A stretch of DNA of 63,711 bases from Candidatus Aenigmatarchaeota archaeon. GTDB lineage: Archaea; EX4484-52. Of the stretch, positions 5,937 to 53,353 are shown piece after piece. The DNA is taken from assembly GCA_023137195.1 (NCBI GenBank), contig JAGLPV010000005.1, positions 1 through 63,711 on the forward strand, given 5' to 3'. The notes under the pieces are model-generated. The model was not told the DNA's origin. It worked only from the letters and a program-made list of their open reading frames with translations, and ran no database searches. Every line of letters begins with the position of its first letter. Position 1 is the first letter of the stretch. Position numbers and translations under genes: made by a program.

Positions 5937-7154
5937 TTACTTATCAGCAATAATCTCAATCATATCCTTGTCTTTTAAGACATAATCCTTTCCTATGACC
6001 TGCTTTGTTTTCACATTGACCGCACGGATAAATTTCTCCCCAAAATCAGTATGAATCTTGAATGCAAAATCAAGGGCTGTAGAGTCTCTCTTCATTAAAA
6101 ATACATCGGGCAGAACATTGCCTTTTTTGTCGCAAAGTGTTTTTGTCCCGGCAGGATAGACACAGATGTAGTCAAGCTTGTCAAATACAGCATAATTCAA
6201 TATATTCAAAACACCTGTTGAGTCAAAGACATTCATTATGTCTTTTATCTTGTCCAGCGCCTGTTTTTGTTCGGAGGACAGTAAAGAGATTTTGTCTTCC
6301 TTTATTTTGAAGTCAGAGTTACCATATAAATAATCAACAATTCCTGCTTTCTGGGCATTCCTTAAAGCAAGTTCTCCTTCTGCAAAAATAGGAACAACCC
6401 TGCTATCGGTTGCAGATTGAAGTTCTTTTAATTTTTCTTTTGTCTTTTCGATGCCGTATTTTCCTATAAGTTTGTCTATCTTATTTGCGCCGATGATTAT
6501 AGGCTTGGTCTTTTTTCTTGCTTCTATTACGAACTGGTCTATCTGATCATCTGTCCATTCAATGAGATTATCGCTAAAACCCAACCGTTCATATATCTCC
6601 ATCGTATCTTCTTCTTTTAGGTTGATATTTGACAATTGCTTAGTCAATGCTTCAATTCCTTTTTCTTTTTGCATATGCGCTGTCCTTACAAATTTTCTCC
6701 AGTTTTTTTTGATAATCCCTATCAACCATAAATCTATTTCCTCTTCCAGAAATTTTATGTCATTTACTGGGTTGTGAGAGCCCATTTCTACGCTGTCTCC
6801 TTTTTCATTTGTGCTTCCTGAGACATCTACTATGTGGATTAGAGCATCGCAGAATATTAAATCATTCAAGAATTGGTTTCCCATCCCTTTGCCCTCGTGA
6901 GCTCCGGGAACTAAACCGGCGACATCTACCAGTTCTATTGGGATATATCTGTAGCCGTCTGTGCAAAAGCCTGTTCTTGGGTTGCATTGTTTTTCCACTT
7001 CTTTGCAGACGCATTTTATTCTGGCATATCCTGCACCGACATTGGCTTTGATTGTGGTGAAAGGGAAATTCTGGATATCTACATCTTTTAGGGTTGATGC
7101 TTTGAAGAATGTGCTTTTGCCTACATTTGGTTTTCCAACTACGCCAATTTTCAT
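5937..7154 (-). CDS. ychF: YchF/OLA1-related archaeal translation-associated GTPase (Obg family, TGS domain)
   Basis: GKPNVGKS, FPFTT, DVAGL, NKID, C-terminal TGS (A..IHTD); start MKIGVVG at 7154. Confidence 0.92.
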   Translation of the reverse strand: MKIGVVGKPNVGKSTFFKASTLKDVDIQNFPFTTIKANVGAGYARIKCVCKEVEKQCNPRTGFCTDGYRYIPIELVDVAGLVPGAHEGKGMGNQFLNDLIFCDALIHIVDVSGSTNEKGDSVEMGSHNPVNDIKFLEEEIDLWLIGIIKKNWRKFVRTAHMQKEKGIEALTKQLSNINLKEEDTMEIYERLGFSDNLIEWTDDQIDQFVIEARKKTKPIIIGANKIDKLIGKYGIEKTKEKLKELQSATDSRVVPIFAEGELALRNAQKAGIVDYLYGNSDFKIKEDKISLLSSEQKQALDKIKDIMNVFDSTGVLNILNYAVFDKLDYICVYPAGTKTLCDKKGNVLPDVFLMKRDSTALDFAFKIHTDFGEKFIRAVNVKTKQVIGKDYVLKDKDMIEIIADK

Positions 7155-7293
7155 AAGGTTATGTGGGGGATAATATTTTAAATTGATGATGGTAGGGTGA
7201 GGTTTTGTGTTCAATTGCTGAGTAAGCAAATTTATTTCATCAACCTATCTTTTTTTAAATACATTTATATATCTTAATGAAGTATTTATCAAT

Positions 7294-8274
7294 ATGTCTA
7301 TAAAAAATGATTCTTTAGCAATCTTAAAACATTTAATTGAAAAAAAGAATTCAAATAGTGTTAATATTATATCTTATTTTGAATTCGAAAAGGCTAGAAC
7401 AGATGAAGCACTAGAATATCTCGAACAAAAAGGTTATATTACGGCAAAAAAAATGTATGATGGCAATTGGCGTTTTATAAAACCAACTAGCCTTGCCATT
7501 GATTATTACGAAGAACTAACGAAGGAGGAAAAGAAAAAACAAGAAAAACATACTCAAGCCAATGAAGATATTATTAAAAAAGAAACATTAGATCAACTAT
7601 CTAGGATTGAAAGAAATATTAATATATTGCATAGTAGAAGATATCGTGAAGTAAATTACAACACCTCCCTTTATCCTCTAATCATCGCCTCTTTTATTGC
7701 AATTGGTTTTACAAGTCTTGTTGAATTCCTAAAAATAATTTTACCTTTAAAATACGAACCAATATTAAGATGGAGTTATTATTCTTTGATGTTTATTTCT
7801 ATTCTTGTTATTAGTAAGATGTCCGAAAAAATGCGAAAAAATTTAGAAGTGGACGACTATGTTGTATTGTTAAAAATCAAAGAAGATAATAAAAACTATG
7901 ATTTACTTAAAAACATAAGAAAGATATTTGAAGATAATGATCACCAGTTATTCAAATTCCGACCTACTTTTGAAGGCATTCTTTTGAATTCAATTATCTT
8001 TAAGATGAAATCAATAGATAAATCTATTGATATTGATAGGAAAGAACAGATATTAAAGGATAAATTCAATAAAGAAACAAAAAAAGTATATTATGAATTT
8101 AAGTATATCAATCGTAGAGGGATATTTTCTTCATTTACTCTAGATTTAAAGAAGTTGAAATTAAAAATTGAAATAGATAAAGGAACCGATTACAAAATTG
8201 CAAATAAAATATATGATACGATAATGAAATTAAATAAATTTGATTTGATTGAAAAATCAGGATGGAATCACTAA
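7294..8274 (+). CDS. Hypothetical protein: N-terminal winged-helix-like segment, coiled coil, two TM helices
   Basis: 326-aa ORF, very AT-rich; EALEYLEQKGYI...KPT resembles a wHTH. Confidence 0.6.
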   Translation: MSIKNDSLAILKHLIEKKNSNSVNIISYFEFEKARTDEALEYLEQKGYITAKKMYDGNWRFIKPTSLAIDYYEELTKEEKKKQEKHTQANEDIIKKETLDQLSRIERNINILHSRRYREVNYNTSLYPLIIASFIAIGFTSLVEFLKIILPLKYEPILRWSYYSLMFISILVISKMSEKMRKNLEVDDYVVLLKIKEDNKNYDLLKNIRKIFEDNDHQLFKFRPTFEGILLNSIIFKMKSIDKSIDIDRKEQILKDKFNKETKKVYYEFKYINRRGIFSSFTLDLKKLKLKIEIDKGTDYKIANKIYDTIMKLNKFDLIEKSGWNH

Positions 8275-8481: not shown

Positions 8482-8696
8482 GACTTTTCTACATTCTTAC
8501 AAAAAATACGGAAAATTCTGTTCTTTACGCTTACGAGTATTTTCTGCATCCCTACGAAATTTACATGCAGAAAATAACCATGAAAATCGCTGGGCTTACA
8601 AGCAATACCGCGCTTTTCAAGGTGTTTCGGTGCTCACTGCGGAATTTGCTCTCCTTACAGGTTATACGGCAAATTCCTTTGTTCACTACCGAAACA
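8482..8696 (-). repeat. tRNA-trailer structured element, copy A (four GTA-N6-GTA hairpin modules)
   Basis: Starts at the base after the tRNA-Gly discriminator; near-identical to 43608-43772; hairpins at 8641-8677, 8582-8618, 8538-8576 and 8482-8518. Confidence 0.85.
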
Positions 8697-8767
8697 TGCA
8701 CTAGCCGGGAATCGAACCCGGATCGTAAGCTTGGGAAGCTTAAATTCTACCACTATACCACTAATGC
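8697..8767 (-). tRNA. tRNA-Gly(CCC)
   Basis: Acceptor GCATTAG/CTAGTGC+A, anticodon arm TAAGC-TTCCCAA-GCTTA, GGTTCGATTCC T-arm; no intron, CCA not encoded. Confidence 0.96.
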
Positions 8768-8771
8768 ACAA

Positions 8772-16961: not shown

Positions 16962-17077
16962 ATTATATCACGGCACAAAAGTAATGCAAGTAATGTGGCG
17001 CGATATACTAGCAAAATACATAAATACTATCCAAATACCAATTATATTTTTTGCATATTTATGTGTTTTGCTATAAT
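16962..17077. repeat. Composite palindromic element, short copy (116 bp)
   Basis: Ends ATTATA...TATAAT; two hairpins; shares both ends with 50680-50949. Confidence 0.8.
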
Positions 17078-22473: not shown

Positions 22474-25400
22474 ATGAAATACAAAACAGGATTTTTTAGT
22501 CTAAAAAATGCAACTTGTATCTTTGTATTTTTTACTGCTCTTTTTTTTATTAGTAACATTGTCTATGCAGTAATAGAAGTTGTTGAAAGTACAAATAGTC
22601 TGGGTTATTATTCTTCAATTGCAATAGATTCTAATGATAAGGTGCATATAAGTCATCATGATTACTCAAATGGTAATTTGCGATACTGCAACAATACAAA
22701 CGGCGGGTGGTCATGCAATGATATTGAAACAGTAGGTAATGTTGGACTATATACTTCAATTGCAATAGATTCTAATGACAAGGTGCATATAAGTCATCAA
22801 AAATATGTTCATTTGGCGAGTGAGTTGAGATACTGCACCAATGCCGGTGGCTCATGGACTTGTAGCACGGTTGATTCCTTAATTGATGTTGGACGACATT
22901 CTTCAATAGCAATAGACTCCAACGGCAAGGTGCATATAAGCCATAATTCTCATATCGCTCCAAATGCAGGTTTACGATACTGCACCAATGCCGGTGGCTC
23001 ATGGACTTGCAATGAAATAGATGCGGCTTATAGATCAGGGTACTATTCTTCAATAGCAATAGACTCCAATAATAAAGTGCATATAAGTCATCGTTATGAT
23101 GATTCAAGTGAGAAGGATTTGCGATACTGCACCAATGCTGGTGGTGGATGGTCATGCAGTACTATAGATAGTATAGGCGATGTTGGTCATTATTCTTCAA
23201 TTGCAATAGATTCTAATGATAAAGTGCATATAAGTTATTCTGATGGAGGAAACAGGGATTTAAAATACTGCAACAATCTCGGTGGTGGATTTGTATGTAG
23301 TGCTGTTGAAACTATAAATAGTGTTGGACGCTCTTCTTCAATAGCAATAGATTCTGAGAATAATGTGCATATAAGCCATAGTGATTCCACAAATAGTGAT
23401 TTGCGATACTGCAGTACAACGGATTATTCTACGTGGAACTGTGAAATTATACATGATTTGACTAGCTATGATTTTGGTGTTTATGGCGGTCGCGGCATAG
23501 CAATAAAAAAAGGCAGGATTGTTGATTCAACCTCCTTTTCAAACGATATTCACCTTTCGTATATGGATGATGCATCTTGGGATTTATACTACGCCAAACT
23601 CGTAAATTATGCTTATTCTTTTTATGTATCTGACTGTTCTGTCCTGAGTGAATCAGGCACATATTATTTGACTCAAAATATACTTGGTTCCTCAACTGAT
23701 CATTGTATAGACATAACTGCAAATAATGTAATTCTTGATTGCCAGGGACATACAATTGAAGGAGATGATGTAGCAGATTACGGAATTTATATACACAGAA
23801 CTTTCTCAGAAACAACAAACATAACCCTAAAAAATTGTGTGCTTACGCACTGGGATACAGCAAATGTTTATTTATATCATGCAAACGATAATAATTTGGA
23901 AAATCTAAATTCCACTTCATCTCCGGATAATGGCTTCCATATCTACTATTCAAATTCCAACAATCTTACAAACATCACAGCGAATTCTAATGTTCGTGGT
24001 ATATATATGGAGTATTCAGACTCCAATAATATCACCAACTCCACAGCTAATTCCAATAATGTCGGCTTCTATTTTGTCCATTCAAATTTCAATACTGCTA
24101 AAAACAACACAGCGAATTCCTGTTTTGAATCCGGTTTCTATATTTCTGATTCAGACTCCAATATTATTACCCGCTCCACAGCCACTTCCAATACTCAACA
24201 TGGTTTCTCTTTTTTCTCCTCTTCTTCAAATAATCTAATGGATTTTACTGCAAATTCCAATAATGAATATGGAATTCAAATATCCTACGATTCAGACAAC
24301 AATATAATTGCAGATTCATTAATATATAATAATACTGAGGGGGGACTTTTTTTAGACAAATGGGGCTTAAACACACCTGATGAGAATAAGATATACAACA
24401 ACTTATTCAACAACTCATTGAAGAACATTGATGTAGATGGAGGAATGTCAAATGTTAATTATTTAAATACGACAAAACAAACAGGGCTTAATATATTTGA
24501 TTCAAATAACCCTTATATTGGCGGCAATTATTACACAGATTTAACAGGAACTGGGTTTTCTGAGACCTGCGCAGATTTAAATACTGATGGATTCTGTGAC
24601 AACAAGCGTATTTTAACAGCAATAGGGAATTCTGTGGCAGAGGATCATCTTCCTTTAAGCAATAAATATACTACTGCTTTATTCATTATAACTTCAAACA
24701 CTCCGTTAAATGAAACAACATCTTCCGACAATACTCCAAATTTTGATTTTGCGACCACAGGAAGTAAAAATTATTATTCCTGCGAGTTGTTTATTGATAA
24801 TATTGGTTTTGGAATAAATGATTCTGTTTTAAACAACACACCCACAACAATCACAGCAAATCCAACACTTATAGATGGAACTTACGATTGGTACATAAAC
24901 TGCTCTTTTGGAGGTGTTACAAACCAGTCAGAAATCAGGGAAATAACAATAACTGCACCTACTCCGTGCACAGATGAATACGACTGCAATCTTTGCCAGA
25001 AATGCATTTTAAATACTTGCACAGACCAATCAAGCAGCGAAGACCTAAAAAATGAATGCCCTAATTACTGCGATGGTTCAGGTTCATGCACTCCGCTGGG
25101 AGCCGGAGATTGCGGCGTAACGCCAGACGGGAAAAACATCAGCATTGCCAGCAAATACAATATTTCCGGACTTTTCAAATGCGAAAAAATAAACTTAAGC
25201 GAGTATTACTCTGACTGTACGGGCAGTGAAACAACAATATACTGGTGGAACGGAACCAACTGGAAGAAAAAGATACCTATTGGCTGCGAATGCAACTTAA
25301 ACACAGAATGCCAAAGTAGATTCTGTTATTATGGAGTTTGCAATGAGCCAATAAATACTTATCCAACAGTCTTATTTATAAACAGGACAATAACTGCTCC

Positions 25401-29963: not shown

Positions 29964-30051
29964 AAATCTCTCACAATATTGCCAGTTTTATCTCATCATT
30001 TTGCCAATTGTTTAAATTATTGTTTACTACTTTTTAGTAAATAATATTAAC

Positions 30052-30085
30052 TCTCACAAAACCATATGTTTTTTTAGTTACTACT
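30052..30085 (+). repeat. 34-bp inverted repeat, left copy
   Basis: TCTCACAAAACCATATGTTTTTTTAGTTACTACT; 29/34 identical to the reverse complement of 32026-32059. Confidence 0.75.
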
Positions 30086-30169
30086 TTTCAGTAAATAAAA
30101 TAAAACTCACAAAAATAGAAAATTTTATCAAATAGATATCTTTTTATATAGTAAAGTCCATATATCCGT

Positions 30170-31014: not shown

Positions 31015-31120
31015 GCAATTATGAGATAAAATACTTTAAATATCTTCTATTTTTGCTCCATTGCGTATAATATACATTATACGCAAAACTTTATATAGTT
31101 TTAGTGCCTATTTAAGCCCT

Positions 31121-31969
31121 ATGGGTGGGGTACAGAGAGTAAATAGACCAAAAAACGAGCTTTTGGCAAAAATGCTCACTGAAATGAAACTCAGGGGCTT
31201 TACCGGCGAGACTTACAAGACATATCTTTTCAACACACAAAAATTTATTCTATGGTATAAAAAAGATCCAAAAACAGCAGAACTCGATGACATAAAAGAA
31301 TATCTTGCAGAATTAATTGATGATGGAAAATCATTCAAATCAATTGCTCTCATAAAGTCGGCAATTTTATTTTTGTACAATGAAGTCCTGGGAAAAGCAT
31401 ACAAAATAAAGACACCAAAAACAACAAAGTCTATTCCTGTAGTCCTGACCAAAACAGAAATAAAAAAAATCCTTGACTTTGAGAGCAACCACAGGAACAA
31501 AACAATAATCTGCTTTTTTTATTCTACAGGAATCCGTCTAAGCGAATTAATAAACATGAAATGGGACGATCTGGACATGAATGACAAAATTGCATGGGTT
31601 AGAGAAGGAAAAGGGAAAAAACACAGGATGATAATATTATCAGAAATATTAATTTCATACCTAAGAACCAGTTTAAGGGATAACAGAACACCAAAAGGAT
31701 ATGTCTTCAACGGAAAAACAAAAGATACAATCGCCCCCAGAACAGTGGAGTATATCATCACCAACGCAGCATTAAGGGCAGGAATCAGGAAAAGAGTGCA
31801 TGTACACACCATGAGGCACTCTTTTGCCACTCACTTGCTCGAAAACGGCACAGACATACGTAAAATACAGGAGCTTTTAGGGCATTCTAACCTTGCAACG
31901 ACCCAGATATACACAAGTGTCTCTAAATCCCAGTTAAAGGCAATTTCCAGTCCTATGGACGCATTATAG
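31121..31969 (+). CDS. Tyrosine recombinase, XerA/XerC-like
   Basis: SAM-like N-domain; catalytic set TGIR.SE, GKG.K, HT.RHSFATH, LGH, TTQIY; start uncertain (31061/31121/31172). Confidence 0.93.
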   Translation: MGGVQRVNRPKNELLAKMLTEMKLRGFTGETYKTYLFNTQKFILWYKKDPKTAELDDIKEYLAELIDDGKSFKSIALIKSAILFLYNEVLGKAYKIKTPKTTKSIPVVLTKTEIKKILDFESNHRNKTIICFFYSTGIRLSELINMKWDDLDMNDKIAWVREGKGKKHRMIILSEILISYLRTSLRDNRTPKGYVFNGKTKDTIAPRTVEYIITNAALRAGIRKRVHVHTMRHSFATHLLENGTDIRKIQELLGHSNLATTQIYTSVSKSQLKAISSPMDAL

Positions 31970-32025
31970 CCAAAAAAACAAGCAAAAAAACAGCAATTTG
32001 TGAGACATTTAATTATTCACTTTTT

Positions 32026-32059
32026 AGTAGTAACAAAAAAAACAGTATGTTTTGTGAGA
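32026..32059 (-). repeat. 34-bp inverted repeat, right copy
   Basis: Reverse complement TCTCACAAAACATACTGTTTTTTTTGTTACTACT. Confidence 0.75.
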
Positions 32060-32122
32060 TTTACAACTAAAAAGTAAAAAATAAGTATTTAATATTTATT
32101 GTCTATTTTTGAGTGTGATAAT

Positions 32123-33475
32123 ATGAGAGATTCTATAGGGACTCCACTTTCTTCAAACGCCTTAAAAATAATGCTCCTTGGTTGTGGAGAGATAGGAAAA
32201 GAAATAATAATAGAAGCACAGAAATTCGGCATCGAGACCATAGGTGTTGACAGGTACGCCAACGCACCAGGTCATCAGGTAGCGCATAAATCCTATGTTG
32301 TAGACATGAAAGACGCAGGCGCCCTGCGTTCGATTATAAATAAGGAAAAACCGGATGTAATAATACCTGAAATTGAAGCAATAAACTTAGACGTTCTGGC
32401 AGAATTTGAAAAAGAAGGATTCCTTGTAATCCCTAATGCAAAAGCAACCTGGACAGCAATGGAGCGAGAAAGGATAAGAGAATTAATTATAAAAGCAGGC
32501 GTCCCAACATCAAAATACGCCTATGCAAATACAGACAACATGCAGGAAGTAAAAAAAGCCGTCCAAAAGACAGGATTCCCCTGCTGGATTAAAGCAATCA
32601 TGAGTTCAAGCGGACAGGGATCTTCATTTGTAAAAAATTCCGATGATGTTGACAGAGCCATAATAGATGCAAAACAAAATGCAAGGGGTTCTGGAGAAAA
32701 AGTTATAATTGAAGAGCATGTCCCTTTTGATATAGAAATAACAGAACTAACCGTCAGGCATTTATCTAACTCCGGCAAAACACTGACCAGCTTTTGCAGA
32801 CCTGTCGGTCACTACCAGATAGACGGCGATTATCATTCCAGCTGGCAGCCATGGGTTGAACCCAACACAGTCGTAAATGGAAAAAAGATTACAGCCGAAC
32901 TCATTGAACTGGCAGAAAAAAGAATATACAAAGCCGCCGGGAAAATCACAGATGCTCTTGGCGGTCTTGGACTATTCGGTTGCGAGTTGTTTGTTGTTTT
33001 TGATGTAGAAAATAATGATGTAAAGGTTTACGGGAATGAATGTTCTCCAAGACCGCATGATACAGGTATGGTAACATTCATAACCCACCTGCAAGGTCTC
33101 TCACAAGCGGGCTTGCATGTCAGAGCCACATGCGGACTACCTGTCCCCACCAGAGAATGGAAGGGCTTTCGTGTAATAGACAACATAGTTTCAGGAGCAT
33201 CTCATGTCATCCTTTCCCCCACTGTCGGATGGGATACAACATTTAAGAATATCTCAAAAGCACTGGAAAAACCAGGCACATCTGTGAGACTTTTCGGCAA
33301 ACCGATTGCGCATGTTGAGAGAAGAATGGGTGTTGCGCTGGTAATTGCAGATACTGTTGAGGAAGCAAAAATAAAAGCAGAGAAAGTAGCGCATATTGTA
33401 GAGATGAAGACATTGGAAAAACCGGAATGGAAAAAGCAGGATATATTTGAGAAGCATTTGGTGTACAAAGGTTGA
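32123..33475 (+). CDS. purT: Formate-dependent GAR transformylase
   Basis: LLG.GE.GKE, DRY.NAP.HQVA, PEIEAI, MSSSG.G, FGCELF, SPRPHDTG.VT, RRMGVA. Confidence 0.96.
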   Translation: MRDSIGTPLSSNALKIMLLGCGEIGKEIIIEAQKFGIETIGVDRYANAPGHQVAHKSYVVDMKDAGALRSIINKEKPDVIIPEIEAINLDVLAEFEKEGFLVIPNAKATWTAMERERIRELIIKAGVPTSKYAYANTDNMQEVKKAVQKTGFPCWIKAIMSSSGQGSSFVKNSDDVDRAIIDAKQNARGSGEKVIIEEHVPFDIEITELTVRHLSNSGKTLTSFCRPVGHYQIDGDYHSSWQPWVEPNTVVNGKKITAELIELAEKRIYKAAGKITDALGGLGLFGCELFVVFDVENNDVKVYGNECSPRPHDTGMVTFITHLQGLSQAGLHVRATCGLPVPTREWKGFRVIDNIVSGASHVILSPTVGWDTTFKNISKALEKPGTSVRLFGKPIAHVERRMGVALVIADTVEEAKIKAEKVAHIVEMKTLEKPEWKKQDIFEKHLVYKG

Positions 33476-33563
33476 GTAATGTATTGAGTAGGTATAATAT
33501 GCCATATTAGCATGGTATCATTACTTTAGTCATGATACCATTATGCGTAGTTCAATATTACTC
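33474..33563. repeat. Nested palindrome overlapping the purT stop codon
   Basis: GAGTAAT..ATTGA pairs with TCAATATTACTC; inner perfect stem ATGGTATCAT/ATGATACCAT; side hairpin ATGC/GCAT. Confidence 0.7.
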
Positions 33564-33613: not shown

Positions 33614-33940
33614 ACTCTTCGGAATTTTTGCTTCGCAAAACCGCTTGCATCTATTCCTTGTCCTCACTACCGTTCGGAGAACCACACAACGAATATACAG
33701 CAAAATTTCCTGCTGAAATTTTTCCCAAATTTTCCTGATGGAAAACTTCGCATATTCGCATATTTTATACGCAATTGAGTTCTCGCTAAAAAACGGGAAG
33801 GGGGCGTGTCCTTCGGACATATTGTCTCGGCTTCGCCTCGGAGAAAAACTTCTCTTAACCGACCAACGGGGACGGGAAAATGCTTCGCACTTTCTATAAC
33901 AAAGGTTAAGAGGTTCGCTTCGCTCTCCCAAATTTTTCTA
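33614..33940 (+). repeat. TTCG-hairpin cluster with a degenerate attC-like site (33684-33770); left boundary of the defence island
   Basis: 33614-33690 is a direct repeat of 40490-40566; C-TTCG-G/C loops at several positions; CTCTTAACC/GGTTAAGAG stem. Confidence 0.65.
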
Positions 33941-34022
33941 TATTATATGAAGTCTTTTATGAAGGTATATTCCCTTTTACTTTGCAAAATATATTCATCG
34001 TAGAAAGAGCACACAATAGACT

Positions 34023-37000
34023 TTATATTTTATTCAAATAATCTCCTAATTCATCGATAAGAATAAAATCAACTTCATTTTTTACATAATGAAAAGAAGG
34101 AATATGGGTATTTACCACGAATCCTTTTTTTGTAATCCAGTTTTCCTTATCCTCAATCTTAAAATGATTCAAAATACTTTCTTTATACTTTTCAACAAAT
34201 GATAATTTTTTGTCTAATTTAGATAAATAAGATTTCTTACTTAGAAAAAATTTTTTGAATTCCTTAAAATTCCCATGTGGTTTTAGGTCTTTAATAGTAT
34301 GTTTAGCATCCAAAACAAAAATAATTTTTTTTGGTTTATTGATTGCTAAAATATCAATCTCCCCTCCTTCATTATCAAGATTCCCTGATTTGTTAATTCC
34401 GATTGTTTTATATTTATTTAGATTCGGGATTACTCTTTCTTCACCTAAAATTTCTTTAGATTTTTCTATTGCTTTATTTTCTAAAAAATTGTCTATCTTG
34501 CCATAATATTTTTTTAATGTATTTTCAATTTCAGAATTATCATCATTATATGGAAGGATCCCATTTGAGATTTTAGTTGTCCAGAACAATGCAGATTTAA
34601 TACAAAGTTCATTGCCAAATAAAATTTTATTATCAATTAACACCAAAGGACATAAAGTTGTTCGTTTTAGGTGATTAGATAATGTCAAAGGCATTAAGTT
34701 TATATCCTTTAAATCATCATAAGATAACGATAAAAAATTTATTAATTTATCTGTTTTCTCAGTAGTTAGTTCTTTATCCTTATCATAAACATATTTTACA
34801 AAGTCATCAGAATTAATTAAAGTCATAGGAAAATATTTATTTGGAATATTGGAATTTCCTAAAATCATTAAAAAATTTAAGATATCATCAAATGAAAATC
34901 CTAACAATTTAAAAAATGCTTCATTTATTGAATCAATATTACTTTCAAAAATATTTTTTAAATTAAATTCATCACTTGAATCACTTATTCTTCTCTCTGA
35001 TTCATTTTCTAAAAAAGATTGTATACGGAAAGAACAATCTCCCTTAATATCCTTTAACTCAAATAAATCTGTAATTTCTATCTTATTTTCCTGAATGTTA
35101 TGTTTAATATAATCAATAATCAAACTGCTGTCTTGATGAACAACAATTAAAGCAACTAAATAAGTCCAATCAGTCAAGGTCAATCTTTTTTCCCCTTTTG
35201 GATTTAATTTCAAGAAATGCGATAAAATTAACTTTGATGACATGGAAACAGTACCAATCTCATTTGTTTTTTTCATATCCTGTTCTTTTAAATCATATTC
35301 AATATATTTTTTAGAATCTATTTTTAATCTTAAATTATGCCTTGTTCTTTCACCCTCGCACAATTCTATTTGATTATAAATAAAAAAGATATTTTCAAAA
35401 CTCAAATTAGAAATATATTCTTCAATTCTACTTTTCAAGTAATCAAAGATTTTACCATTTATTTTATTAGCATCTTCATTTTCATAAATCCCCGGCTTTA
35501 TTTCTTCTTTCTTAATAAATTGTGTCAACTCTCTATTAACTCTCATTATATCCGATTTTATATCTTTTATTGAATAAGAATAATCGTTTAATTTTTTATT
35601 AATTACTGGTATACTATTATAAGAAAACCCCTTTTTAGAAAAAGGAATAAATTTATCAATTAATGAAATAATAGTATTATTTGAATTAGGAATATTAAAA
35701 TAATGAAATAAATTATCCAAATATAATTTTATAATCACCCTTTCACCTTCATTGTTATCGGAAGTAAATAATTTAGGAAAGTAATTAAAATCATAAATAA
35801 TACAAGTTTTTAGAACATTTCCGGATATAATTCCAGTTTTTAAAAAAATAGGGTTATTTTCATCAATTTTATCCAAATAGTCTTTTAAGAATCTAAATTT
35901 TTGATTTTTTTTAATTAATTCCACAGGGTATAATGATATAATATATTTATCATTACAATAATTTTGAGTTATAACCTCTTTTATTTCTTTACTCATTTTT
36001 TCTAAATTAGTATAAATCAAAGGACCTAAAAAATTAGAAAATGACTCGATAGACTCTGAAGAAAGATTCTTAATTTCAGAAGGATACTGAATAATTATAT
36101 CATCAAAAAACGAATTCTCAATTAGAGCCCCCCCGCTATAAGAAAATGTATCTATAAATTCATATATATTTTTGGAAACTTTTTTTATTTTATTAAAATT
36201 TTTCCCATATAACAATTCTATTTTTGCTTTCCTATTGGTAACATAGGTTTCATAAAGTTTATCATAGTAATAATCTAACCATTCATGAGGAGGAATTATA
36301 AGGGAATTTATTTGATCACTCGAAATTGGATAAGATAGATTATTTTTCAAATAATAAGGGATTCTATCTAAAAAATCAGCCGTGTGAATTTTATCTCTTA
36401 ACTCAGTATCATCCCTCACAAATCTAAATAAATCTAAGCTGGATTTAAATGTGTCTAACAATGCAAGATAATCAGAAAAAGAAATAATTAAATTATTTCC
36501 CTTGATATCCGGGATTGATGCATAATATTCACCAAGAGTATTTTCATGGACTATTATTTTGATAATTTCTAAGTCTAATTCTTTTAAGGGAATCAAACCT
36601 TTATTAATCAACAAAAATTCACCATGTTCATTAATGTCTCTCTCTAATAGTTCTAAAGAATTTGTTGCATTCTTTATCTCACTACTTAAATCTCTATCTT
36701 TAAGCACATTTGTAGTTTTAATCAAAAAAAGTTTATTGTAATCCACACAAGCACAAAAATCAATATTTCTCAGTAAAGGCTTTTTTTCATTATCTAATAT
36801 ATTAATTTCAAACTCAGATTTTGAGAAAAATTCTGGTGATTTAAATAATAATTGTTTCTTAAAAATTTTGGTTATTTCAACTAAATCCTTATGGGTTATC
36901 GTTTTATTTATTAATTCATAAAACGAAGTTAAGTGTTCCTGTGGGAATATCCAATAATATTTTTCATTTAATTTTATTTTTGCTTTTGTATGTAATTTAG

Positions 37001-37622
37001 ATTCAACTATCTGGTTCTTAACTTCCTCAATATTTTCATTAAAATCATCAATCGATAAGAAAACATCATCCTCTTCTGTAATAAATAATTGTTTTATATC
37101 ATCAAAAAAGTCATTGGATGGGATATATATGTAATCTTTTTCTTTTTTAGATTCTTCTTTTGCTGATATTTTTTTTATGAGTTTAGTTTGTAATGATAAT
37201 GAATCCATGAATTTAGAGTTTATTTGTTTAAGTTCCTCTTTCAAACTACTTTCTAAAAAATATTTAATGTATTTCTGATATTGTTCATAGCTATTCTCAA
37301 ATGGTCCTGCAAAAAAATAATATTCCTTTTTGTCAATAATTAAAGGAATTGACTTAAAAATAGGATAAGGACTCCAATCTTCTAACATTATAAAGTCTTT
37401 TTCATATTTTTGATTAAATATATTAATTATCTCTTGAAAAGAATCTCTGGAAATAGTTTTATTCTTGAAAGTATCAGATTTAATTGATAAAATAATAGTA
37501 CATAATAATTCAAATCTATACTGATATAACTGATTATTTGGATGGATTGATACTACTTGAGTCCACAAAAATAATTCATCTTGGTCATATTCTTTTAATT
37601 TTAAAATTAAATCATTTTTCAT
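34023..37622 (-). CDS. 1199-aa hypothetical protein with a C-terminal PD-(D/E)xK-like nuclease motif
   Basis: Uninterrupted, extremely AT-rich ORF; GEIDILAINKPKKIIFVLDAKH. Confidence 0.7.
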   Translation of the reverse strand: MKNDLILKLKEYDQDELFLWTQVVSIHPNNQLYQYRFELLCTIILSIKSDTFKNKTISRDSFQEIINIFNQKYEKDFIMLEDWSPYPIFKSIPLIIDKKEYYFFAGPFENSYEQYQKYIKYFLESSLKEELKQINSKFMDSLSLQTKLIKKISAKEESKKEKDYIYIPSNDFFDDIKQLFITEEDDVFLSIDDFNENIEEVKNQIVESKLHTKAKIKLNEKYYWIFPQEHLTSFYELINKTITHKDLVEITKIFKKQLLFKSPEFFSKSEFEINILDNEKKPLLRNIDFCACVDYNKLFLIKTTNVLKDRDLSSEIKNATNSLELLERDINEHGEFLLINKGLIPLKELDLEIIKIIVHENTLGEYYASIPDIKGNNLIISFSDYLALLDTFKSSLDLFRFVRDDTELRDKIHTADFLDRIPYYLKNNLSYPISSDQINSLIIPPHEWLDYYYDKLYETYVTNRKAKIELLYGKNFNKIKKVSKNIYEFIDTFSYSGGALIENSFFDDIIIQYPSEIKNLSSESIESFSNFLGPLIYTNLEKMSKEIKEVITQNYCNDKYIISLYPVELIKKNQKFRFLKDYLDKIDENNPIFLKTGIISGNVLKTCIIYDFNYFPKLFTSDNNEGERVIIKLYLDNLFHYFNIPNSNNTIISLIDKFIPFSKKGFSYNSIPVINKKLNDYSYSIKDIKSDIMRVNRELTQFIKKEEIKPGIYENEDANKINGKIFDYLKSRIEEYISNLSFENIFFIYNQIELCEGERTRHNLRLKIDSKKYIEYDLKEQDMKKTNEIGTVSMSSKLILSHFLKLNPKGEKRLTLTDWTYLVALIVVHQDSSLIIDYIKHNIQENKIEITDLFELKDIKGDCSFRIQSFLENESERRISDSSDEFNLKNIFESNIDSINEAFFKLLGFSFDDILNFLMILGNSNIPNKYFPMTLINSDDFVKYVYDKDKELTTEKTDKLINFLSLSYDDLKDINLMPLTLSNHLKRTTLCPLVLIDNKILFGNELCIKSALFWTTKISNGILPYNDDNSEIENTLKKYYGKIDNFLENKAIEKSKEILGEERVIPNLNKYKTIGINKSGNLDNEGGEIDILAINKPKKIIFVLDAKHTIKDLKPHGNFKEFKKFFLSKKSYLSKLDKKLSFVEKYKESILNHFKIEDKENWITKKGFVVNTHIPSFHYVKNEVDFILIDELGDYLNKI

Positions 37623-37818
37623 ATTAGCATACTTAGGATAAGGAGATTTTTATATATTTCCATAATAGACTTTAAATAACAAAATACCTTTTATTCTTTG
37701 TCCTAAGGCATCACAGAACTCTTTTAATAAATGAAACTGACTCTTAATCCTACAACCTATTGATCAGTTCACTCAAAACAACAAACTTTTTATTAACCAA
37801 CTCCAAACAAATAGATAT

Positions 37819-38604
37819 ATGGTCAAACCCTACTTCAACTCAGAAAATATACAGTTATTCCATGATGATTGTTTAAATGTTCTTAATTCACTACCTGCAA
37901 ATTCAGTTAATATGATTTTTGCAGATCCGCCTTATTTTCTCTCTAATGGCGGAATTTCCTGTAGAGCGGGAAAAATTGTTTCTGTAAATAAAGCAGATTG
38001 GGATAAATCACAAGGCACTGAAAAAGATTTTGAATTTACTCAAAATTGGATTAAAGCCTGTCGCAGGGTTCTAAAAGATAATGGCACTATTTGGATTTCC
38101 GGAACTATGCACAGTATTTATCAGGTTGGTTTTGCTTTGCAAAAACATAATTTCAAAATTCTAAATGAAATCAGCTGGTTTAAACCAAATGCACCGCCTA
38201 ATTTAACCTGCAAATATTTTGCCCATGCTCACGAAACGGTTTTATGGGCAAGAAAGCATCTAAAAATACCCCACCAATTCAATTATGAAGAAATGAAAAA
38301 CTGGAATGACAAATTAAGTCCAAACGGGAAACAAATGCGTAGTGTTTGGACTATTCCTTTAACGCCTCAATCTGAAAAAATCCATGGGAAACACCCGACT
38401 CAAAAACCAATAGAACTACTAAAAAGAATAATCTCTTCTTCAACAAAAGAAAATGCAGTTATTTTAGATCCATTTAACGGTTCCGGCACAACGGGCGTAG
38501 TCGCCTCTATGTTAAACAGAAAATATATAGGCATTGATAAAGAAGAAGATTTTTTGAAACTCACCTTAAAAAGACTGAATTTATTGAATAAAACGAATAC
38601 TTAA
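37819..38604 (+). CDS. Beta-class N6-adenine DNA methyltransferase (DpnA-like)
   Basis: FADPPY before LDPFNGSGTTG; HPTQKP. Confidence 0.93.
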   Translation: MVKPYFNSENIQLFHDDCLNVLNSLPANSVNMIFADPPYFLSNGGISCRAGKIVSVNKADWDKSQGTEKDFEFTQNWIKACRRVLKDNGTIWISGTMHSIYQVGFALQKHNFKILNEISWFKPNAPPNLTCKYFAHAHETVLWARKHLKIPHQFNYEEMKNWNDKLSPNGKQMRSVWTIPLTPQSEKIHGKHPTQKPIELLKRIISSSTKENAVILDPFNGSGTTGVVASMLNRKYIGIDKEEDFLKLTLKRLNLLNKTNT

Positions 38605-38629
38605 ATAGTACTAAGTGTTATATTATTAT

Positions 38630-39475
38630 ATGTGTGTCCAGATACCGAAATTCGTAAAATGGGCTGGTGGAAAAACCCAACTCATTGAGCAATTTATCCC
38701 ATTATTCCCAAAAAAATTTAATTGTTATTTGGAACCATTTGTCGGAAGCGGAGCAGTTTTTTTTCATCTAATCCAAAATTTCAAACCAAAAAAGATTATT
38801 CTTTCTGATATTAATGAAGAATTAATCAACGCATACCTGATAATTCGTGATGATGTTGAAAGATTAATCGTTGAATTAAAACAACATAAAGAATATCACC
38901 AATCAGAAGGCAAAAAATATTATTTGACAATTCGTGCAACTAATCCAAATGATTTGCCTCCTTTAGAAAGAGCCGCAAGATTTATTTATCTAAACAAAAC
39001 CTGTTTTAATGGTCTTTATAGAGTAAATTCAAAAGGTAAATTTAATGTGCCTATGGGTTCTTACAAAAACCCCGATATTATTCAGGAAGAGAAATTAAAA
39101 TTAATTTCTAAATTACTTCAAAATGTAATTATCAAAGTAATGTCTTTTGAAAAAATTATCAATTTAGCAAAAAAAGGAGATTTTGTTTATTTAGATCCGC
39201 CTTATTATCCGTTGCAAAAAGGGAAAAGTTTTACAACATATAGTAAAAACAATTTCTTGGAAAAAGAACAAGAACTTTTAACAAAAGTCTTTGAAACTTT
39301 AGATAAAAAAGGTTGTTATGTTATGGAAAGCAACAGCGAAACAAAATTTATCAAAAACCTTTATACCAACTTTAAAATTCACATGGTTACAGCAAGACGG
39401 ATGATTAACTGTGATGGTTCTAAACGAGGAGCCATAAACGAATATGTTATAACTAATTATGAGGTGCTAAAATGA
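38630..39475 (+). CDS. Dam-family (DpnM-like, alpha-class) DNA adenine methyltransferase
   Basis: KWAGGK, EPFVGSGAV, FNGLYRVN..G.FNVP.G, YLDPPY. Confidence 0.95.
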   Translation: MCVQIPKFVKWAGGKTQLIEQFIPLFPKKFNCYLEPFVGSGAVFFHLIQNFKPKKIILSDINEELINAYLIIRDDVERLIVELKQHKEYHQSEGKKYYLTIRATNPNDLPPLERAARFIYLNKTCFNGLYRVNSKGKFNVPMGSYKNPDIIQEEKLKLISKLLQNVIIKVMSFEKIINLAKKGDFVYLDPPYYPLQKGKSFTTYSKNNFLEKEQELLTKVFETLDKKGCYVMESNSETKFIKNLYTNFKIHMVTARRMINCDGSKRGAINEYVITNYEVLK

Positions 39476-40404
39476 AATATTTACAAACTTACAAAAAACT
39501 AAATCTGAAAGATGACGATAAAGAGATTTTTGAATATCTAATAAAAACGCTAAAAGATTCAATTTTCACATGGGACTATTTTGTTGAATTCCAAAAAGTA
39601 AAGAAAAATATAACAAAAATTGAGAAAGAACTCAATCTACTAAATGTGCTTATAGGAAAAGAAGATATTGAAACCGAATTTATAAATTTGGTTGCGGAAT
39701 ATCCAAAAGTAAGAACGGTTTTACCGATACTAATAGCAATCAGAAATAACAAAATGAAAGAAACAAAAATAATTGATGATTTCGATGAATTAATCTCAGA
39801 AAATAAAGATAACCTGTTTAATCCTTCTGAAGAATTGACAAATGAAGTTAAAGAGGATTTACTGGCATTTTTCAATAATTCAGGTTTAAAGGCAATTTTT
39901 GAAGATAAAAATATCAAAAATGTGGTTGATTATTGTTTTGGTGTAGAAGTGGGAATGGATACAAATGCCCGAAAAAACAGAACCGGAAAATCAATGGAAA
40001 GCATAGTTGAAAAAATAATTCAAAAATTTTCCAAAGAAAACAACCTTGAATATATTCCACAGGCAACACAAACAAAAATTAAAGCTCGATGGGGCGTTGA
40101 GATGGAATTGGATAAAACAAACAGAATTTTTGATTTTGCAATATTTAACAAATCCAAAAACAAGATCTATATTATAGAAACTAATTTTTATGGCGGAGGC
40201 GGTTCAAAATTAAAATCAACAGCCGGAGAATATCAATATCTTTATGATTTATTGTCTAAACAAGGAATTGATTTAATTTGGGTAACTGACGGTTTAGGTT
40301 GGAGGACAACAAAAAAATCATTATCTGAAACATTTATCCACAATGATTATGTCTTTAATATAGAACTCATTAAACAGGATATTCTTAAAGATGTAATATT
40401 TTGA
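39472..40404 (+). CDS. DpnII-family type II restriction endonuclease (GATC expected)
   Basis: G.EVG.DTNARKNRTG, FDF, IETNFY.GGGSKL, WVTDG.GW. Confidence 0.92.
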   Translation: MKYLQTYKKLNLKDDDKEIFEYLIKTLKDSIFTWDYFVEFQKVKKNITKIEKELNLLNVLIGKEDIETEFINLVAEYPKVRTVLPILIAIRNNKMKETKIIDDFDELISENKDNLFNPSEELTNEVKEDLLAFFNNSGLKAIFEDKNIKNVVDYCFGVEVGMDTNARKNRTGKSMESIVEKIIQKFSKENNLEYIPQATQTKIKARWGVEMELDKTNRIFDFAIFNKSKNKIYIIETNFYGGGGSKLKSTAGEYQYLYDLLSKQGIDLIWVTDGLGWRTTKKSLSETFIHNDYVFNIELIKQDILKDVIF

Positions 40405-40424
40405 TCTTATCCATTTCATAAAAA

Positions 40425-40650
40425 GGAATTCCCCCGTCCTTCGGACAGACAGTCTGCTTCGCAGAATATATACGGAAAACTTAAACTTAACTCTGCGGGA
40501 TTTTTTGCTTCGCAAAAACCGCCTGCGGCTATCCCTTGGTCTCCGCTTCGCTCCGACAGACATAACAAGCAAGAGACTACGAAACCTTGCAGGTTTCTCC
40601 GTCCAAATTTTTGGCTACGCCAAAAACTTCTCTTAATGCTGATGTTATAT
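40425..40650 (+). repeat. TTCG-hairpin cluster plus attC-like site (40560-40650); right boundary of the defence island
   Basis: ACATAAC...GTTATAT ends; AGC/GCT and AAGAGA/TCTCTT pairing; GAAACC/GGTTTC and TTTTTGG/CCAAAAA inner stems. Confidence 0.7.
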
Positions 40651-40731
40651 CCATAAAGTATTGTATCTCTTTATTACTCCCACAAAATTCAAAGCCGAAA
40701 CCCATATAATAGAAAATCAATCAACAAACAT

Positions 40732-41055
40732 TTAGCCATACAAAAAAATTCCACCTATCACAAATATATAGACTATAATCCACGCCATATTGCATAGTAT
40801 GATGACTTTTTCCTTGTGGGCAAATCCATAAAGAATCCATGCAAATGCAGGAATCATAAAGAGACTCCAGGAAAGCAGAGATAATCCCGATGCTGTCTGT
40901 TGCGTGTATATCTTTAATATCTGTGGAAGTGTCATAAGGGGACCTATCAAGACCAAAGGATAAATCACCTTATCTATTGACATTTTCAATTTATCCGGCT
41001 CATATTCATTCATTCTCTGATGGAGGTGTCGAAAACCATGATGTGTTTGTACCAT
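40732..41055 (-). CDS. SemiSWEET/PQ-loop family transporter
   Basis: TLPQ..KI, GLSLLSW, W..YG, N; three TM segments; His-rich leader. Confidence 0.85.
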   Translation of the reverse strand: MVQTHHGFRHLHQRMNEYEPDKLKMSIDKVIYPLVLIGPLMTLPQILKIYTQQTASGLSLLSWSLFMIPAFAWILYGFAHKEKVIILCNMAWIIVYIFVIGGIFLYG

Positions 41056-43534: not shown

Positions 43535-43607
43535 GGGATGGTAGCTCAGTTGGCAGAGCGCTGGACTGAAGATCCAGGTGTCGCGTGTTCAAGTCACGCC
43601 CATCCCA
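43535..43607 (+). tRNA. tRNA-Phe(GAA)
   Basis: Acceptor GGGATGG/CCATCCC+A, anticodon arm CTGGA-CTGAAGA-TCCAG, TTCAAGT T-loop; no intron. Confidence 0.96.
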
Positions 43608-43772
43608 TGTTTCGGTAGTGAACAAAGGAATTTGCCCCTTAAGAGCAAATTCCGCAGTGAGCACCGAAACACCTTGAAAAGCGCGGTATTTAGCGTAAGC
43701 CCAGCGATTTTCATGGTGTTTTTCTGCACGTAATTTTCGTAAGACTGCAGAAAAATGTCGTAAGCGTAAGAA
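43608..43772 (+). repeat. tRNA-trailer structured element, copy B
   Basis: Starts at the base after the discriminator; same sequence as copy A apart from loop indel/substitutions and compensatory stem changes. Confidence 0.85.
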
Positions 43773-43795
43773 AACGAATCCTCGATATTTATTAT

Positions 43796-50330: not shown

Positions 50331-50702
50331 ATGAAAATAACAATCAACAACAAGGAAATAGACAATATTATTTCAATGAAGAGTATATTTCAACTTACAA
50401 AAGGACTGATGTTCAAAAAAAGCGGCAGAGCTCTACTTGTATTTCCACTTAATGCAAAGCACTCCATCTGGATGGCTTGCATGAAATATTCACTGGATTT
50501 GATTTTCATTGATGAAAACTATAAAATTGTTGATATTTTTGAAGATGTCAAACCATTGACATTAAATCCAAAAACATGGAAAACATATATCCCTAAACAA
50601 AAATGCAGGTATGTACTTGAAGTTGAATCCGGTTTAATCAAAAAATATGATTTGAAAACAGGAATTTTAGTTAAGTTCAATTATATCACGGCACAAAAGT
50701 AA
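50331..50702 (+). CDS. DUF192 family protein; last six codons and stop supplied by the palindromic element
   Basis: KGLMF, IWM..M...LD.IFID, YVLEV..G. Confidence 0.88.
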   Translation: MKITINNKEIDNIISMKSIFQLTKGLMFKKSGRALLVFPLNAKHSIWMACMKYSLDLIFIDENYKIVDIFEDVKPLTLNPKTWKTYIPKQKCRYVLEVESGLIKKYDLKTGILVKFNYITAQK

Positions 50703-50949
50703 GGCAAGTAATGTGGCGTGATATAATCTCAAACGCAATTATATTACCCGTTATGCTAATTGCGTCTTCGAATATATTCACCCGCTCTTTGCGGTCGAAT
50801 ATACTAGCAAAATACATAAATGCTATCTAAATACCGATTATATTTTTGTATTATTTTCTGCTGTGAATAAAGTATAAGCAGAAAATAAGCTTAAAAGTAG
50901 TATTTTGCGTAGGGAAACTTTTATGATTATTTATGTGTTTTGCTATAAA
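50680..50949. repeat. Composite palindromic element, long copy (270 bp) with two nested inserts
   Basis: Same outer modules as 16962-17077, plus a 78-bp and a 76-bp two-hairpin insert. Confidence 0.8.
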
Positions 50950-53075: not shown

Positions 53076-53124
53076 ATTAAATAATCGTGATTAAATATAT
53101 AAATATGTATTTATTTTCCACTTA

Positions 53125-53353
53125 TATAGAAATTATGTAATTGGCGTATAATGATTTCTATACATTAAAAGTGATATTAATTGTAAGGCTCTTTTATTGT
53201 ATAGAAATTATGTAATTTGCGTATAATGATTTCTATACATTAAAAGTAGTATTAATTGTAAGGCTCTTTTATTGTTTTTTAATTGTTGTGCAAATTGAAG
53301 GGAAACGATTACAAAACATTAAAAGTAGTATTAATTGTAAGGCTCTTTTATTG
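53125..53353. repeat. Tandem array of palindromic modules X-Y-X-Y-Z-Y overlapping the trpS 3' end
   Basis: X 38 bp (53125, 53200); Y 37 bp (53163, 53238, 53317); Z 42 bp (53275). Confidence 0.9.

Follow-up and report, generated by a model that had tools for sequence, protein, structure and literature searches.

Integrons and other systems resembling the locus

Integrons, including archaeal integrons and the clusters of attC sites lacking integron integrases (CALINs), are the closest known system to the structured repeats that bound a defence island in a contig of a Candidatus Aenigmatarchaeota archaeon (JAGLPV010000005.1; the whole analysed stretch of 63,711 nucleotides is called the window). 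CALINs without an integron integrase (IntI) are present in metagenome-assembled genomes of DPANN archaea, including Pacearchaeales, Woesearchaeales and Aenigmatarchaeota, and archaeal attC sites were recombined by the bacterial IntI1 (Ghaly et al. 2022, PMC9668308). Two other papers present integron integrases as enzymes thought to derive from Xer-like recombinases by gain of a domain for folded single strands (PMC4792948, PMC7790495). The repeats of the window probably represent, at a probability of roughly 0.55 by our estimate, a family of structured recombination sites that does in these DPANN archaea what attC does in integrons. In full-text literature searches, nothing describing cassette rows headed by Xer genes was found for DPANN archaea.

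The rows of sites found in relatives of this organism share with integrons co-oriented, mostly single open reading frames (ORFs) between folded sites with invariant ..AAC and GTT.. boxes, and the sites likewise show covariation in the inner stem and an unpaired spacer that is asymmetric. Both systems have a divergent tyrosine recombinase gene at the row end, adjoining a docking site, with a crossover placed at G/TT (the slash marks the point of exchange or of divergence here and below). The cargo is also integron-like, with restriction-modification (R-M) systems, toxin-antitoxin-like pairs, defence genes and small unknown ORFs. Unlike in integrons, the recombinases are Xer paralogues without the IntI-specific domain and the site boxes are full arms of dif. 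The site interior is a conserved three-way junction accompanied by extra 5' (S, ACTCTTCGG) and 3' (type 2) modules, and cargo is not tied to one site; the unit of the window has 6.9 kb and four genes.

Other systems resemble the locus in part. The attP site of phage CTX, an integrative mobile element exploiting Xer (IMEX), is a folded single strand in which inverted dif-like half-sites ~90 nt apart are used by host Xer enzymes. The elements described here would likewise pair inverted dif-like half-sites ~90 nt apart in one strand, making a recombination substrate, and are associated with Xer-family enzymes; as for IMEX, their integration would be next to or into dif-like sequence. They differ from IMEX by the lack of phage genomes (their 22-nt motif was not found in viral contigs of IMG/VR), by the multi-unit rows and by the dedicated Xer paralogues; the left repeat of the window lies 2.7 kb from an intact dif, with xerA and purT in between, and not inside it.

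The pdif sites of Acinetobacter plasmids are plain 28-bp duplex sites in inverted pairs. Pdif modules also have accessory genes bounded by Xer-site-like sequences, with modules and flanks reshuffled among replicons, while the sites reported here are folded direct repeats of 100-450 nt in chromosomal rows. Repetitive extragenic palindromic (REP) sequences and bacterial interspersed mosaic elements are, like the present elements, short, G+C-rich, hairpin-forming intergenic repeats. Those accompanied by a REP-associated tyrosine transposase (RAYT) differ from the ~15 copies of this genome, which are found in co-oriented rows, tied to accessory genes. Identity with REP/RAYT was rejected: this genome lacks PF01797 (Y1 transposase), as do 34 of the 42 genomes of the order, and where the transposase occurs it does not follow the distribution of the elements.

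The repeated element of the window

A preliminary description had reported two same-orientation repeats (33614-33690 and 40490-40566), each ending in an AAC box that opens an attC-like hairpin and together enclosing a 1199-aa gene and an R-M operon. Both repeats exist and belong to a single structured element that covers 33614-33777 and 40490-40657, with the AAC boxes ACACAAC (33684-33690) and ACATAAC (40560-40566); the ORF, Pfam and PADLOC results place the gene and the operon between them. A blastn search of the whole assembly (1.42 Mb, 57 contigs, 85% complete) aligned 33614-33660 with 40490-40538 at 84% identity (E 2.5e-6). Similarity fades but persists in pairwise alignment to ~33770 and ~40650. 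The components of the element in the window are the following.

33489-33556, + strand: orphan docking-site-like element, homologous to the site beside the row-type recombinase gene of G001:C50
33596-33676, + strand: 5' module of the left copy, ACTCTTCGG-ATTTTTGCTTCGCAAAA-CCGCTTGC plus a variable hairpin; holds the repeat starting at 33614
33677-33777, + strand: degenerate core of the left copy, 19.5 bits (E 0.09) with the covariance model
33796-33950, + strand: type 2 unit, GGGGG-GTCCTTCGGAC.., CTCTTAACC..hairpin..TATAACAAAGGTTAAGAG, GCTTCGC, CCCAAATTTTTCTATATTATA (TATA-box-like end)
40421-40557, + strand: module S (CCCCC-GTCCTTCGGAC-..-GCTTCGC) and 5' module of the right copy; holds the repeat starting at 40490
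40558-40657, + strand: canonical core of the right copy, 87.8 bits with the covariance model, which was built from element copies that include this one

The right core has the order ATAACA, L'', hairpin 1, TCCGTCCAAAT, hairpin 2, ACTT, L' and CTGATG/TTATATCCA. The left copy is a degenerate hybrid site, which terminates in an exact dif right arm, TTATACGCAAT (33765-33775). Both copies are rich in the C-TTCG-G/C loops noticed earlier, mostly three-base T-N-C loops on short G+C stems. The element upstream of the left copy (33489-33556) is composed of a dif-left-arm-like sequence, TAGGTATAAT, a hairpin, GGTATCAT..ATGATACC, and then ATTATG/CGTAGTTCAAT.

The extra conserved upstream module proposed in the preliminary description is found, with module S, across the order. 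The 5' module of the left copy has blastn matches at 40490-40538 and on contigs C15, C5 and C1, and is near-identical in a genome of another family (G041:C78). For the type 2 unit, identity is 92% both with C1:6334-6476 and with G010:C28, again a genome of another family; in many genomes this unit follows the closing box of the core element. A giant split hairpin spanning the cargo was considered and rejected for the window, where module S is direct, not inverted, at both ends; a 10-bp inverted pair, GGGGAGTTCC and GGAACTCCCC, was seen on C1 only.

Fold and covariation of the element core

The right copy is predicted to fold between 40562 and 40648 into a three-way junction closed by ATAACA/TGTTAT. 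As DNA the fold has z values of -5.9 (+ strand) and -4.9 (- strand), none of 200 shuffles being equally stable. The left fold (33690-33758) is weaker (z -2.8 / -3.7) and closes via an inner CGAATAT/ATATTCG stem only. The right copy, 92 nt long from 40560 to 40651, has one mismatch to each attC consensus box (RYYYAAC and GTTRRRY). The attC-like hairpin first proposed for both copies holds for this one, with its inverted AAC/GTT boxes, covarying inner stem and unpaired asymmetric spacer, and not for the left one, in which the outer stem is unpaired. A fold of ~90 bp does follow the AAC box, but in place of a variable hairpin its interior is a conserved three-way junction.

Hand alignment of copies from this genome and its relatives defines a core that starts with (G)AATATAACA and a variable L'' of 9-11 nt. 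Its middle part consists of hairpin 1 (GAAACCT-TGC-AGGTTTC), the linker TCCNNCCAAAT, hairpin 2 (TTTTGGC-TAC-GCCAAAA) and ACTT; the 3' part has L', a stretch of 5-7 nt through the G preceding TTAT, and then (G)TTATATTCAATT. In 18 hand-aligned copies 86.8% of cells pair, compared to 37-50% for slid partners, 17 pairs are changed on both sides and no shuffle among 500 was as good. In a further 68 copies 87.2% of cells pair (31-45% for slid partners) and 428 cells show double changes, where shuffles gave 152; this alignment was made with the covariance model and is biased towards its structure. TAAC and GTTA alone are invariant, which are the same two triplet-bearing boxes that define attC sites. 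The Rfam scan returned two tRNAs only and no match for the element.

Three-base hairpin loops are T-N-C on the top strand in ~87 of 97 cases, equivalent to G-N-A when the other strand is read. In DNA, mini-hairpins with a G-N-A triloop and a closing C:G pair are exceptionally stable, a hint rather than proof that a single DNA strand is the functional form.

The dif site, XerA and the row-type recombinases

The window encodes a dif site and its likely cognate recombinase.

31061-31086, no strand assigned: dif site, TTGCGTATAA-TATACA-TTATACGCAA, directly upstream of xerA and overlapping the xerA promoter
31121-31969, + strand: xerA, housekeeping-type tyrosine recombinase of 282 aa from the ATG at 31121; the public record also has 282 aa

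By sequence, the two have the features of a Xer/dif module for chromosome resolution, a single 11-6-11 palindrome and a vertically inherited cognate recombinase. The site is the only full dif match and palindrome in the 1.42-Mb genome, the same dif is found beside xerA orthologues in two same-genus genomes, and the xerA product scores 224 bits with NF040815 (XerA_Arch). The outer boxes of the element are dif arms, with the inner ..GTATAA found in the R'' box and G plus TTATAYKCAAT forming the R' box. The genome has only three occurrences of the exact 11-mer arm: one within dif, one closing the left copy and one next to the second recombinase gene, on contig C1. A further observation is that 71-nt inverted repeats (30028-30098 and 32013-32083, 73% complementary, with ACTACTTTTTAGTAAATAA-like motifs) bracket a block made of a shikimate-kinase-like gene, dif and xerA.

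The genome has two tyrosine recombinase genes in all. Both products are XerA-like and match TIGR02249 and NF011946 in two pieces, below cut-off, skipping the IntI-specific insertion. An IntI with the I2 insertion, whose presence the preliminary description had left to be checked, is absent above the TIGR02249 cut-off from all 42 genomes, ten of which are at least 90% complete, and every match skips model positions ~181-236; the system is not a classical integron. In public records, the nearest relatives of the recombinases carry the labels Pacearchaeota, Nanoarchaeota and Woesearchaeota.

In a tree of 41 recombinases, the XerA of the window belongs to a clade of 13 rows that follows the taxonomy of the organisms, and most row-linked enzymes lie outside this housekeeping clade. 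The C1 enzyme (6616-7434) is therefore taken as the row-type recombinase of the genome; the tree rejects housekeeping XerA as the row enzyme in general. The split is not a clean two-way one, because family f4 has its own clade of dif and recombinase. The row-type enzymes of G001:C82, G041:C78 and G027:C156 (L097, L101 and L145) come from two families and are separated by branch lengths of 0.04-0.06; such near-identity across families suggests recent horizontal transfer of the recombinase and docking-site module, or a binning artefact.

Rows and a recombinase gene are found on one contig in eight cases (G000:C1, G001:C50, G001:C82, G010:C28, G029:C16, G041:C65, G041:C78 and G008:C65), and decayed recombinase genes adjoin elements in G008:C40 and G037:C117. 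A divergent recombinase gene lies 103-189 nt from the row end in G001:C82, G041:C78 and G001:C50. Row-type recombinase genes have a dif-like site ~40-100 nt upstream, an attI-like docking site whose crossover at G/TT is placed by sequence comparison. An exact search of metagenome contigs for the docking-site hairpin gave no match.

Rows of elements in relatives and in metagenomes

The covariance model detects 15 copies in this genome, mostly adjoining accessory or defence genes; iterated blastn recovers only ten pieces in six places, several of them as pairs around accessory genes. This distribution differs from the genome-wide REP-like family that would have spoken against the original reading. 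Single copies are also found between core genes, as at C37:8664 between a YjeF_N gene and a transporter gene. Of the 42 genomes of the order, 28 carry copies. Those of relatives build compact rows of ORF, ~55 nt, element, ~55 nt and ORF, mostly co-oriented, with up to 7 sites per contig. A row on contig C56 of this genome has three sites separating ORFs of 142 and 174 aa, followed by a Schlafen/AlbA_2-type gene. On G000:C22 (16754-18180), a 322-aa gene whose C-terminus resembles TIR and nucleoside deoxyribosyltransferase proteins lies between two inverted elements and adjoins the gene of ribosomal protein L44e.

A second island, on C1, has a ribbon-helix-helix gene and a gene for a 1602-aa ProA/Hhe-type helicase-nuclease between flanks like those of the window (left 92% identical; right, C1:861-1092 against 40421-40653, 76% over 242 nt) and adjoins the second recombinase gene of the genome. 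The cargo of the two islands is different. An element cluster is followed, at the contig end (G000:C1, 3-446), by the beginning of an HsdM gene of a type I R-M system, and the C1 island thus probably continues with another defence unit.

The 22-nt motif is present in at least 120 metagenome contigs from groundwater and sediment. An independent metagenome sample of 49 contigs (352 kb) was chosen solely by the motif. Sites are co-oriented in all 19 multi-site contigs of the sample. Twelve contigs have a Xer-like gene, which in 11 is divergent with the row on its 5' side; the closest distances between gene and row are 254-361 nt. One Xer-like gene per 29 kb, against roughly two per genome in the order, corresponds by arithmetic estimate to a ~20-fold enrichment.

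Breakpoints and inheritance of cassettes

Comparison of loci positions the likely exchange at the right-arm border of the sites. Homology among G000:C1, G001:C50 and the window starts at TG/TTATACGCAAT and extends through a linker and the type 2 unit; upstream of this point the three are unrelated. The orphan element at 33489-33556 diverges from the docking site of G001:C50 directly past ATTATG. The recombinase-proximal dif-like site of G001:C82, AGTTCGTATAT-AAGATG-TTATACGAAAT, is common to G041:C78 up to ..AAGATG/TT, where divergence begins. A cassette ~90% identical between the C56 row and G001:C66 starts directly past the ..ATG/ of the upstream site. Such breaks are those expected from exchange at the right-arm border and match the G/TT point of integrons. 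The likely crossover in the window, judged from these alignments, is at G/TTATA of the closing box, between 33764 and 33765 and between 40644 and 40645. The excision junction at the AAC boxes (33.69 and 40.57 kb) that the preliminary description had envisaged finds no support, as homology breaks at the ..TG/TTATA.. border instead.

The other ends of shared cargo are placed differently. The block common to C56 and G001:C66 ends ~20 nt into the 5' module of the next element, the flanking element bodies being only ~50% alike, and a two-gene block common to G029:C16 and G013:C10 ends just before module S and ~145 nt past the upstream site. Window and C1 show the converse, alike flanks and different cargo. 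The assortment of cargo is thus independent of that of the element bodies, which requires either a further point of exchange or homologous exchange that involves the conserved modules.

The island of the window may be a single oversized unit. No internal site remnant was detected between the 1199-aa gene and the R-M operon, and a single unit at 33765-40644 is favoured over a decayed row for this reason. Between the two options first put forward, a decayed array and a ~7-kb multi-gene cassette, the better reading is the large four-gene unit, preceded by an ORF-less unit. The window lacks two sites less than 4 kb apart, by which CALINs are recognised; C56 and many relatives have them.

Proposed mechanism and alternative explanations

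The ensemble points to a genuine integron-like, Xer-associated system, for which the comparisons of sequences suggest the following mechanism with moderate confidence. A full site combines the inner part of the dif left arm (..GTATAAC) with the whole right arm (G/TTATAYKCAAT), ~90 nt apart. On folding of one strand the two dif arms would pair, and the inner stem and three-way junction would form. A Xer-family tyrosine recombinase without the IntI domain would then exchange strands at the G/TTATA border, the likeliest enzyme in this organism being the row-type paralogue of C1 (6616-7434), perhaps aided by XerA. The reaction would insert or excise DNA between sites. The window would hold, according to this scheme, an orphan docking-type site after purT (33489-33556); an ORF-less unit that ends, at 33764, in the hybrid site whose right arm is a dif arm; and a 6.9-kb unit (33765-40644) that starts with the type 2 module, continues with the 1199-aa gene and the DpnII R-M operon, and finishes with the canonical site. 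We infer that the sites act as single-stranded DNA, and the acting strand, the enzyme and a persisting mobility of the island are presumptive in the same way. The same flanks around two unrelated islands, in the window and on C1, would be explained if both are bounded by a Xer-associated site system. A more tentative proposal is that DPANN archaea of this order have a gene-capture platform made entirely of Xer parts, in which a duplicated XerA with a dif-like docking site of its own would insert and excise cassettes by means of sites of ~100 nt; these would fold, probably as single-stranded DNA with G-N-A triloops, into a three-way junction and rebuild a dif-like arm.

Several observations weigh against recombination sites of this kind or against their activity at the island. 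The left site reaches only 19.5 bits, its outer boxes CACAAC and TTTATA are unpaired so that the outer stem cannot form, and T, not G, precedes TTATA. The recombinase gene 1.7 kb upstream of the island is housekeeping XerA and not a row-type enzyme, and for every other member of its clade the surrounding 2.5 kb are free of elements. Between the two sites of the window lie ~6.9 kb and four genes without any further site, a distance far outside the row spacing of 0.4-3 kb. Elements are found without any detected recombinase in G013, G035 and G021, and families f2 and f3 have recombinases with few or no elements (G005, alone among the f3 genomes, has three). An ORF inherited together with its own downstream site was not found, shared cargo excluding both neighbouring element bodies. 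None of the four homologues of the 1199-aa protein found elsewhere is flanked by the element. The same-genus genomes G001-G003 retain purT and purD with other neighbours, and this loss of synteny precludes the reading of an empty site. Modules S and type 2 are conserved, as is the single-stranded CCAAAT linker (TCCNNCCAAAT), yet they have no role in the mechanism above. What stands of the integron interpretation is its layout, with co-oriented cassette rows in relatives and attC-like sites; a classical integron is contradicted by the missing IntI domain and by the missing cassette-site linkage.

The independent assortment of cargo and bodies, with dissimilar elements flanking the same cargo (C56/G001:C66, G029/G013) and shared flanks around different cargo (window and C1), would also result if the elements were selfish or passive structured repeats, similar to REP sequences or to miniature inverted-repeat transposable elements, at the edges of accessory DNA that is swapped by homologous double crossover between conserved modules. 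Breakpoints in conserved blocks, where homologous exchange would resolve as well, and single copies between core genes (C37:8664) agree with this explanation, which we nevertheless regard as unlikely. It accounts neither for covarying stems in which only TAAC/GTTA are fixed and outer boxes that are dif arms, nor for co-orientation in 19 of 19 contigs and divergent Xer paralogues at 11 of 12 row ends, and the distribution of Y1/RAYT transposases given above does not favour it. Less likely still is that the elements act as RNA, be it a structured 3' untranslated region, a terminator, a processing signal or a small RNA, and that their resemblance to dif is incidental. A three-way junction with a conserved single-stranded linker and loops is more typical of RNAs than of attC sites, the element follows a co-oriented ORF by ~55 nt in compact rows, and the type 2 unit has a TATA-box-like end. 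Yet Rfam has no match, the adjacent large genes of the window and C1 are antisense to the elements, and the loops have three bases, T-N-C / G-N-A, and are not of the UNCG or GNRA tetraloop types that RNA favours. Nor would an RNA function explain the exact dif arm, the linkage to recombinases and the arm-border breakpoints.

The elements might finally be ordinary attC sites in CALINs, served in trans by a classical IntI missing from incomplete assemblies or provided by community members. Their R'' and R' boxes fit RYYYAAC and GTTRRRY with 0-1 mismatch, their length of ~92 bp is in range, and published work reports both DPANN CALINs without IntI and recombination of archaeal attCs by bacterial IntI1 (PMC9668308). 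This is the least probable of the alternatives, given that none of the 42 genomes has an IntI-type protein, that Xer paralogues with their own dif-like docking site lie at row ends, that the boxes match the host dif arm over 11 nt, well past the attC consensus, and that the site interior is conserved and not variable. Recombination sites of a Xer-associated system are accordingly preferred here.

Cargo genes, chromosomal flanks and other repeats

The genes of the island and its immediate flanks are listed below.

32099-33475, + strand: purT, left chromosomal flank (Pfam ATP-grasp, PurT_C)
34023-37622, - strand: 1199-aa cargo gene, no family match; C-terminal E-I-D..D-A-K motif
37819-40404, + strand: DpnII-type R-M operon (N6_N4 methylase, D12/Dam-class methylase, DpnII endonuclease)
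40732-41055, - strand: SemiSWEET-like gene, right chromosomal flank (Pfam MtN3_slv, PQ-loop)

The island (34023-40404) has ~24-27% GC in surroundings of ~35% and is flanked by core genes, purT on the left and the SemiSWEET-like gene and purD on the right. PurT is 82% identical in the same-genus G001, where its neighbours differ. GCA_030639115.1, the only public record in which the 1199-aa protein is identical, agrees in gene content. With Pfam E-values of 3e-61, 3e-70 and 3e-90 and PADLOC assignments to MTase_II and REase_II, the R-M operon is of the standard DpnII type.

The 1199-aa protein has no match in Pfam, NCBIfam, PADLOC or the PDB. Its four homologues (28-69% identity) are encoded in unrelated contexts. 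Those on groundwater metagenome contigs L062-L064 are 67% identical and lie two genes downstream of a stand-alone Cas1 gene; this block also holds a LAGLIDADG gene and may be a casposon-like or viral element. The aligned E-I-D..D-A-K motif and the predicted order of strands and helices suggest a PD-(D/E)xK nuclease. The AlphaFold2 model of the protein is of low confidence (mean predicted local distance difference test score 46.8).

The window has other repeats of different nature. The genes of tRNA-Gly (8696-8768, - strand) and tRNA-Phe (43535-43607, + strand) are each followed by the same sequence of ~150-200 nt, present as inverted copies 83-85% alike (8501-8720 and 43584-43793). Tandem periodic repeats of 141/147 nt and 66-69 nt at 22581-23413 and 23932-24265 belong to an apparent large gene for a repetitive surface protein. 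Two other non-coding families are a tandem array of three 75-nt units at 53122-53350, with 95% and 69% identity to the reference copy, and a pair of dispersed 54-58-nt repeats, 88-91% identical, at 16962-17060 and 50680-50856.

Implications for integron origin and for DPANN archaea

A gene-capture platform built wholly of Xer parts, if real, would mean either that the integron principle was invented independently or that a likeness of the Xer-like ancestor of integron integrases is still alive today. Recombination of folded sites would then not need the I2 domain. Plain Xer paralogues heading rows of folded, dif-derived sites would make the Xer-to-IntI transition directly testable, and would reveal how symbiotic archaea with reduced genomes take up defence genes and reshuffle them.

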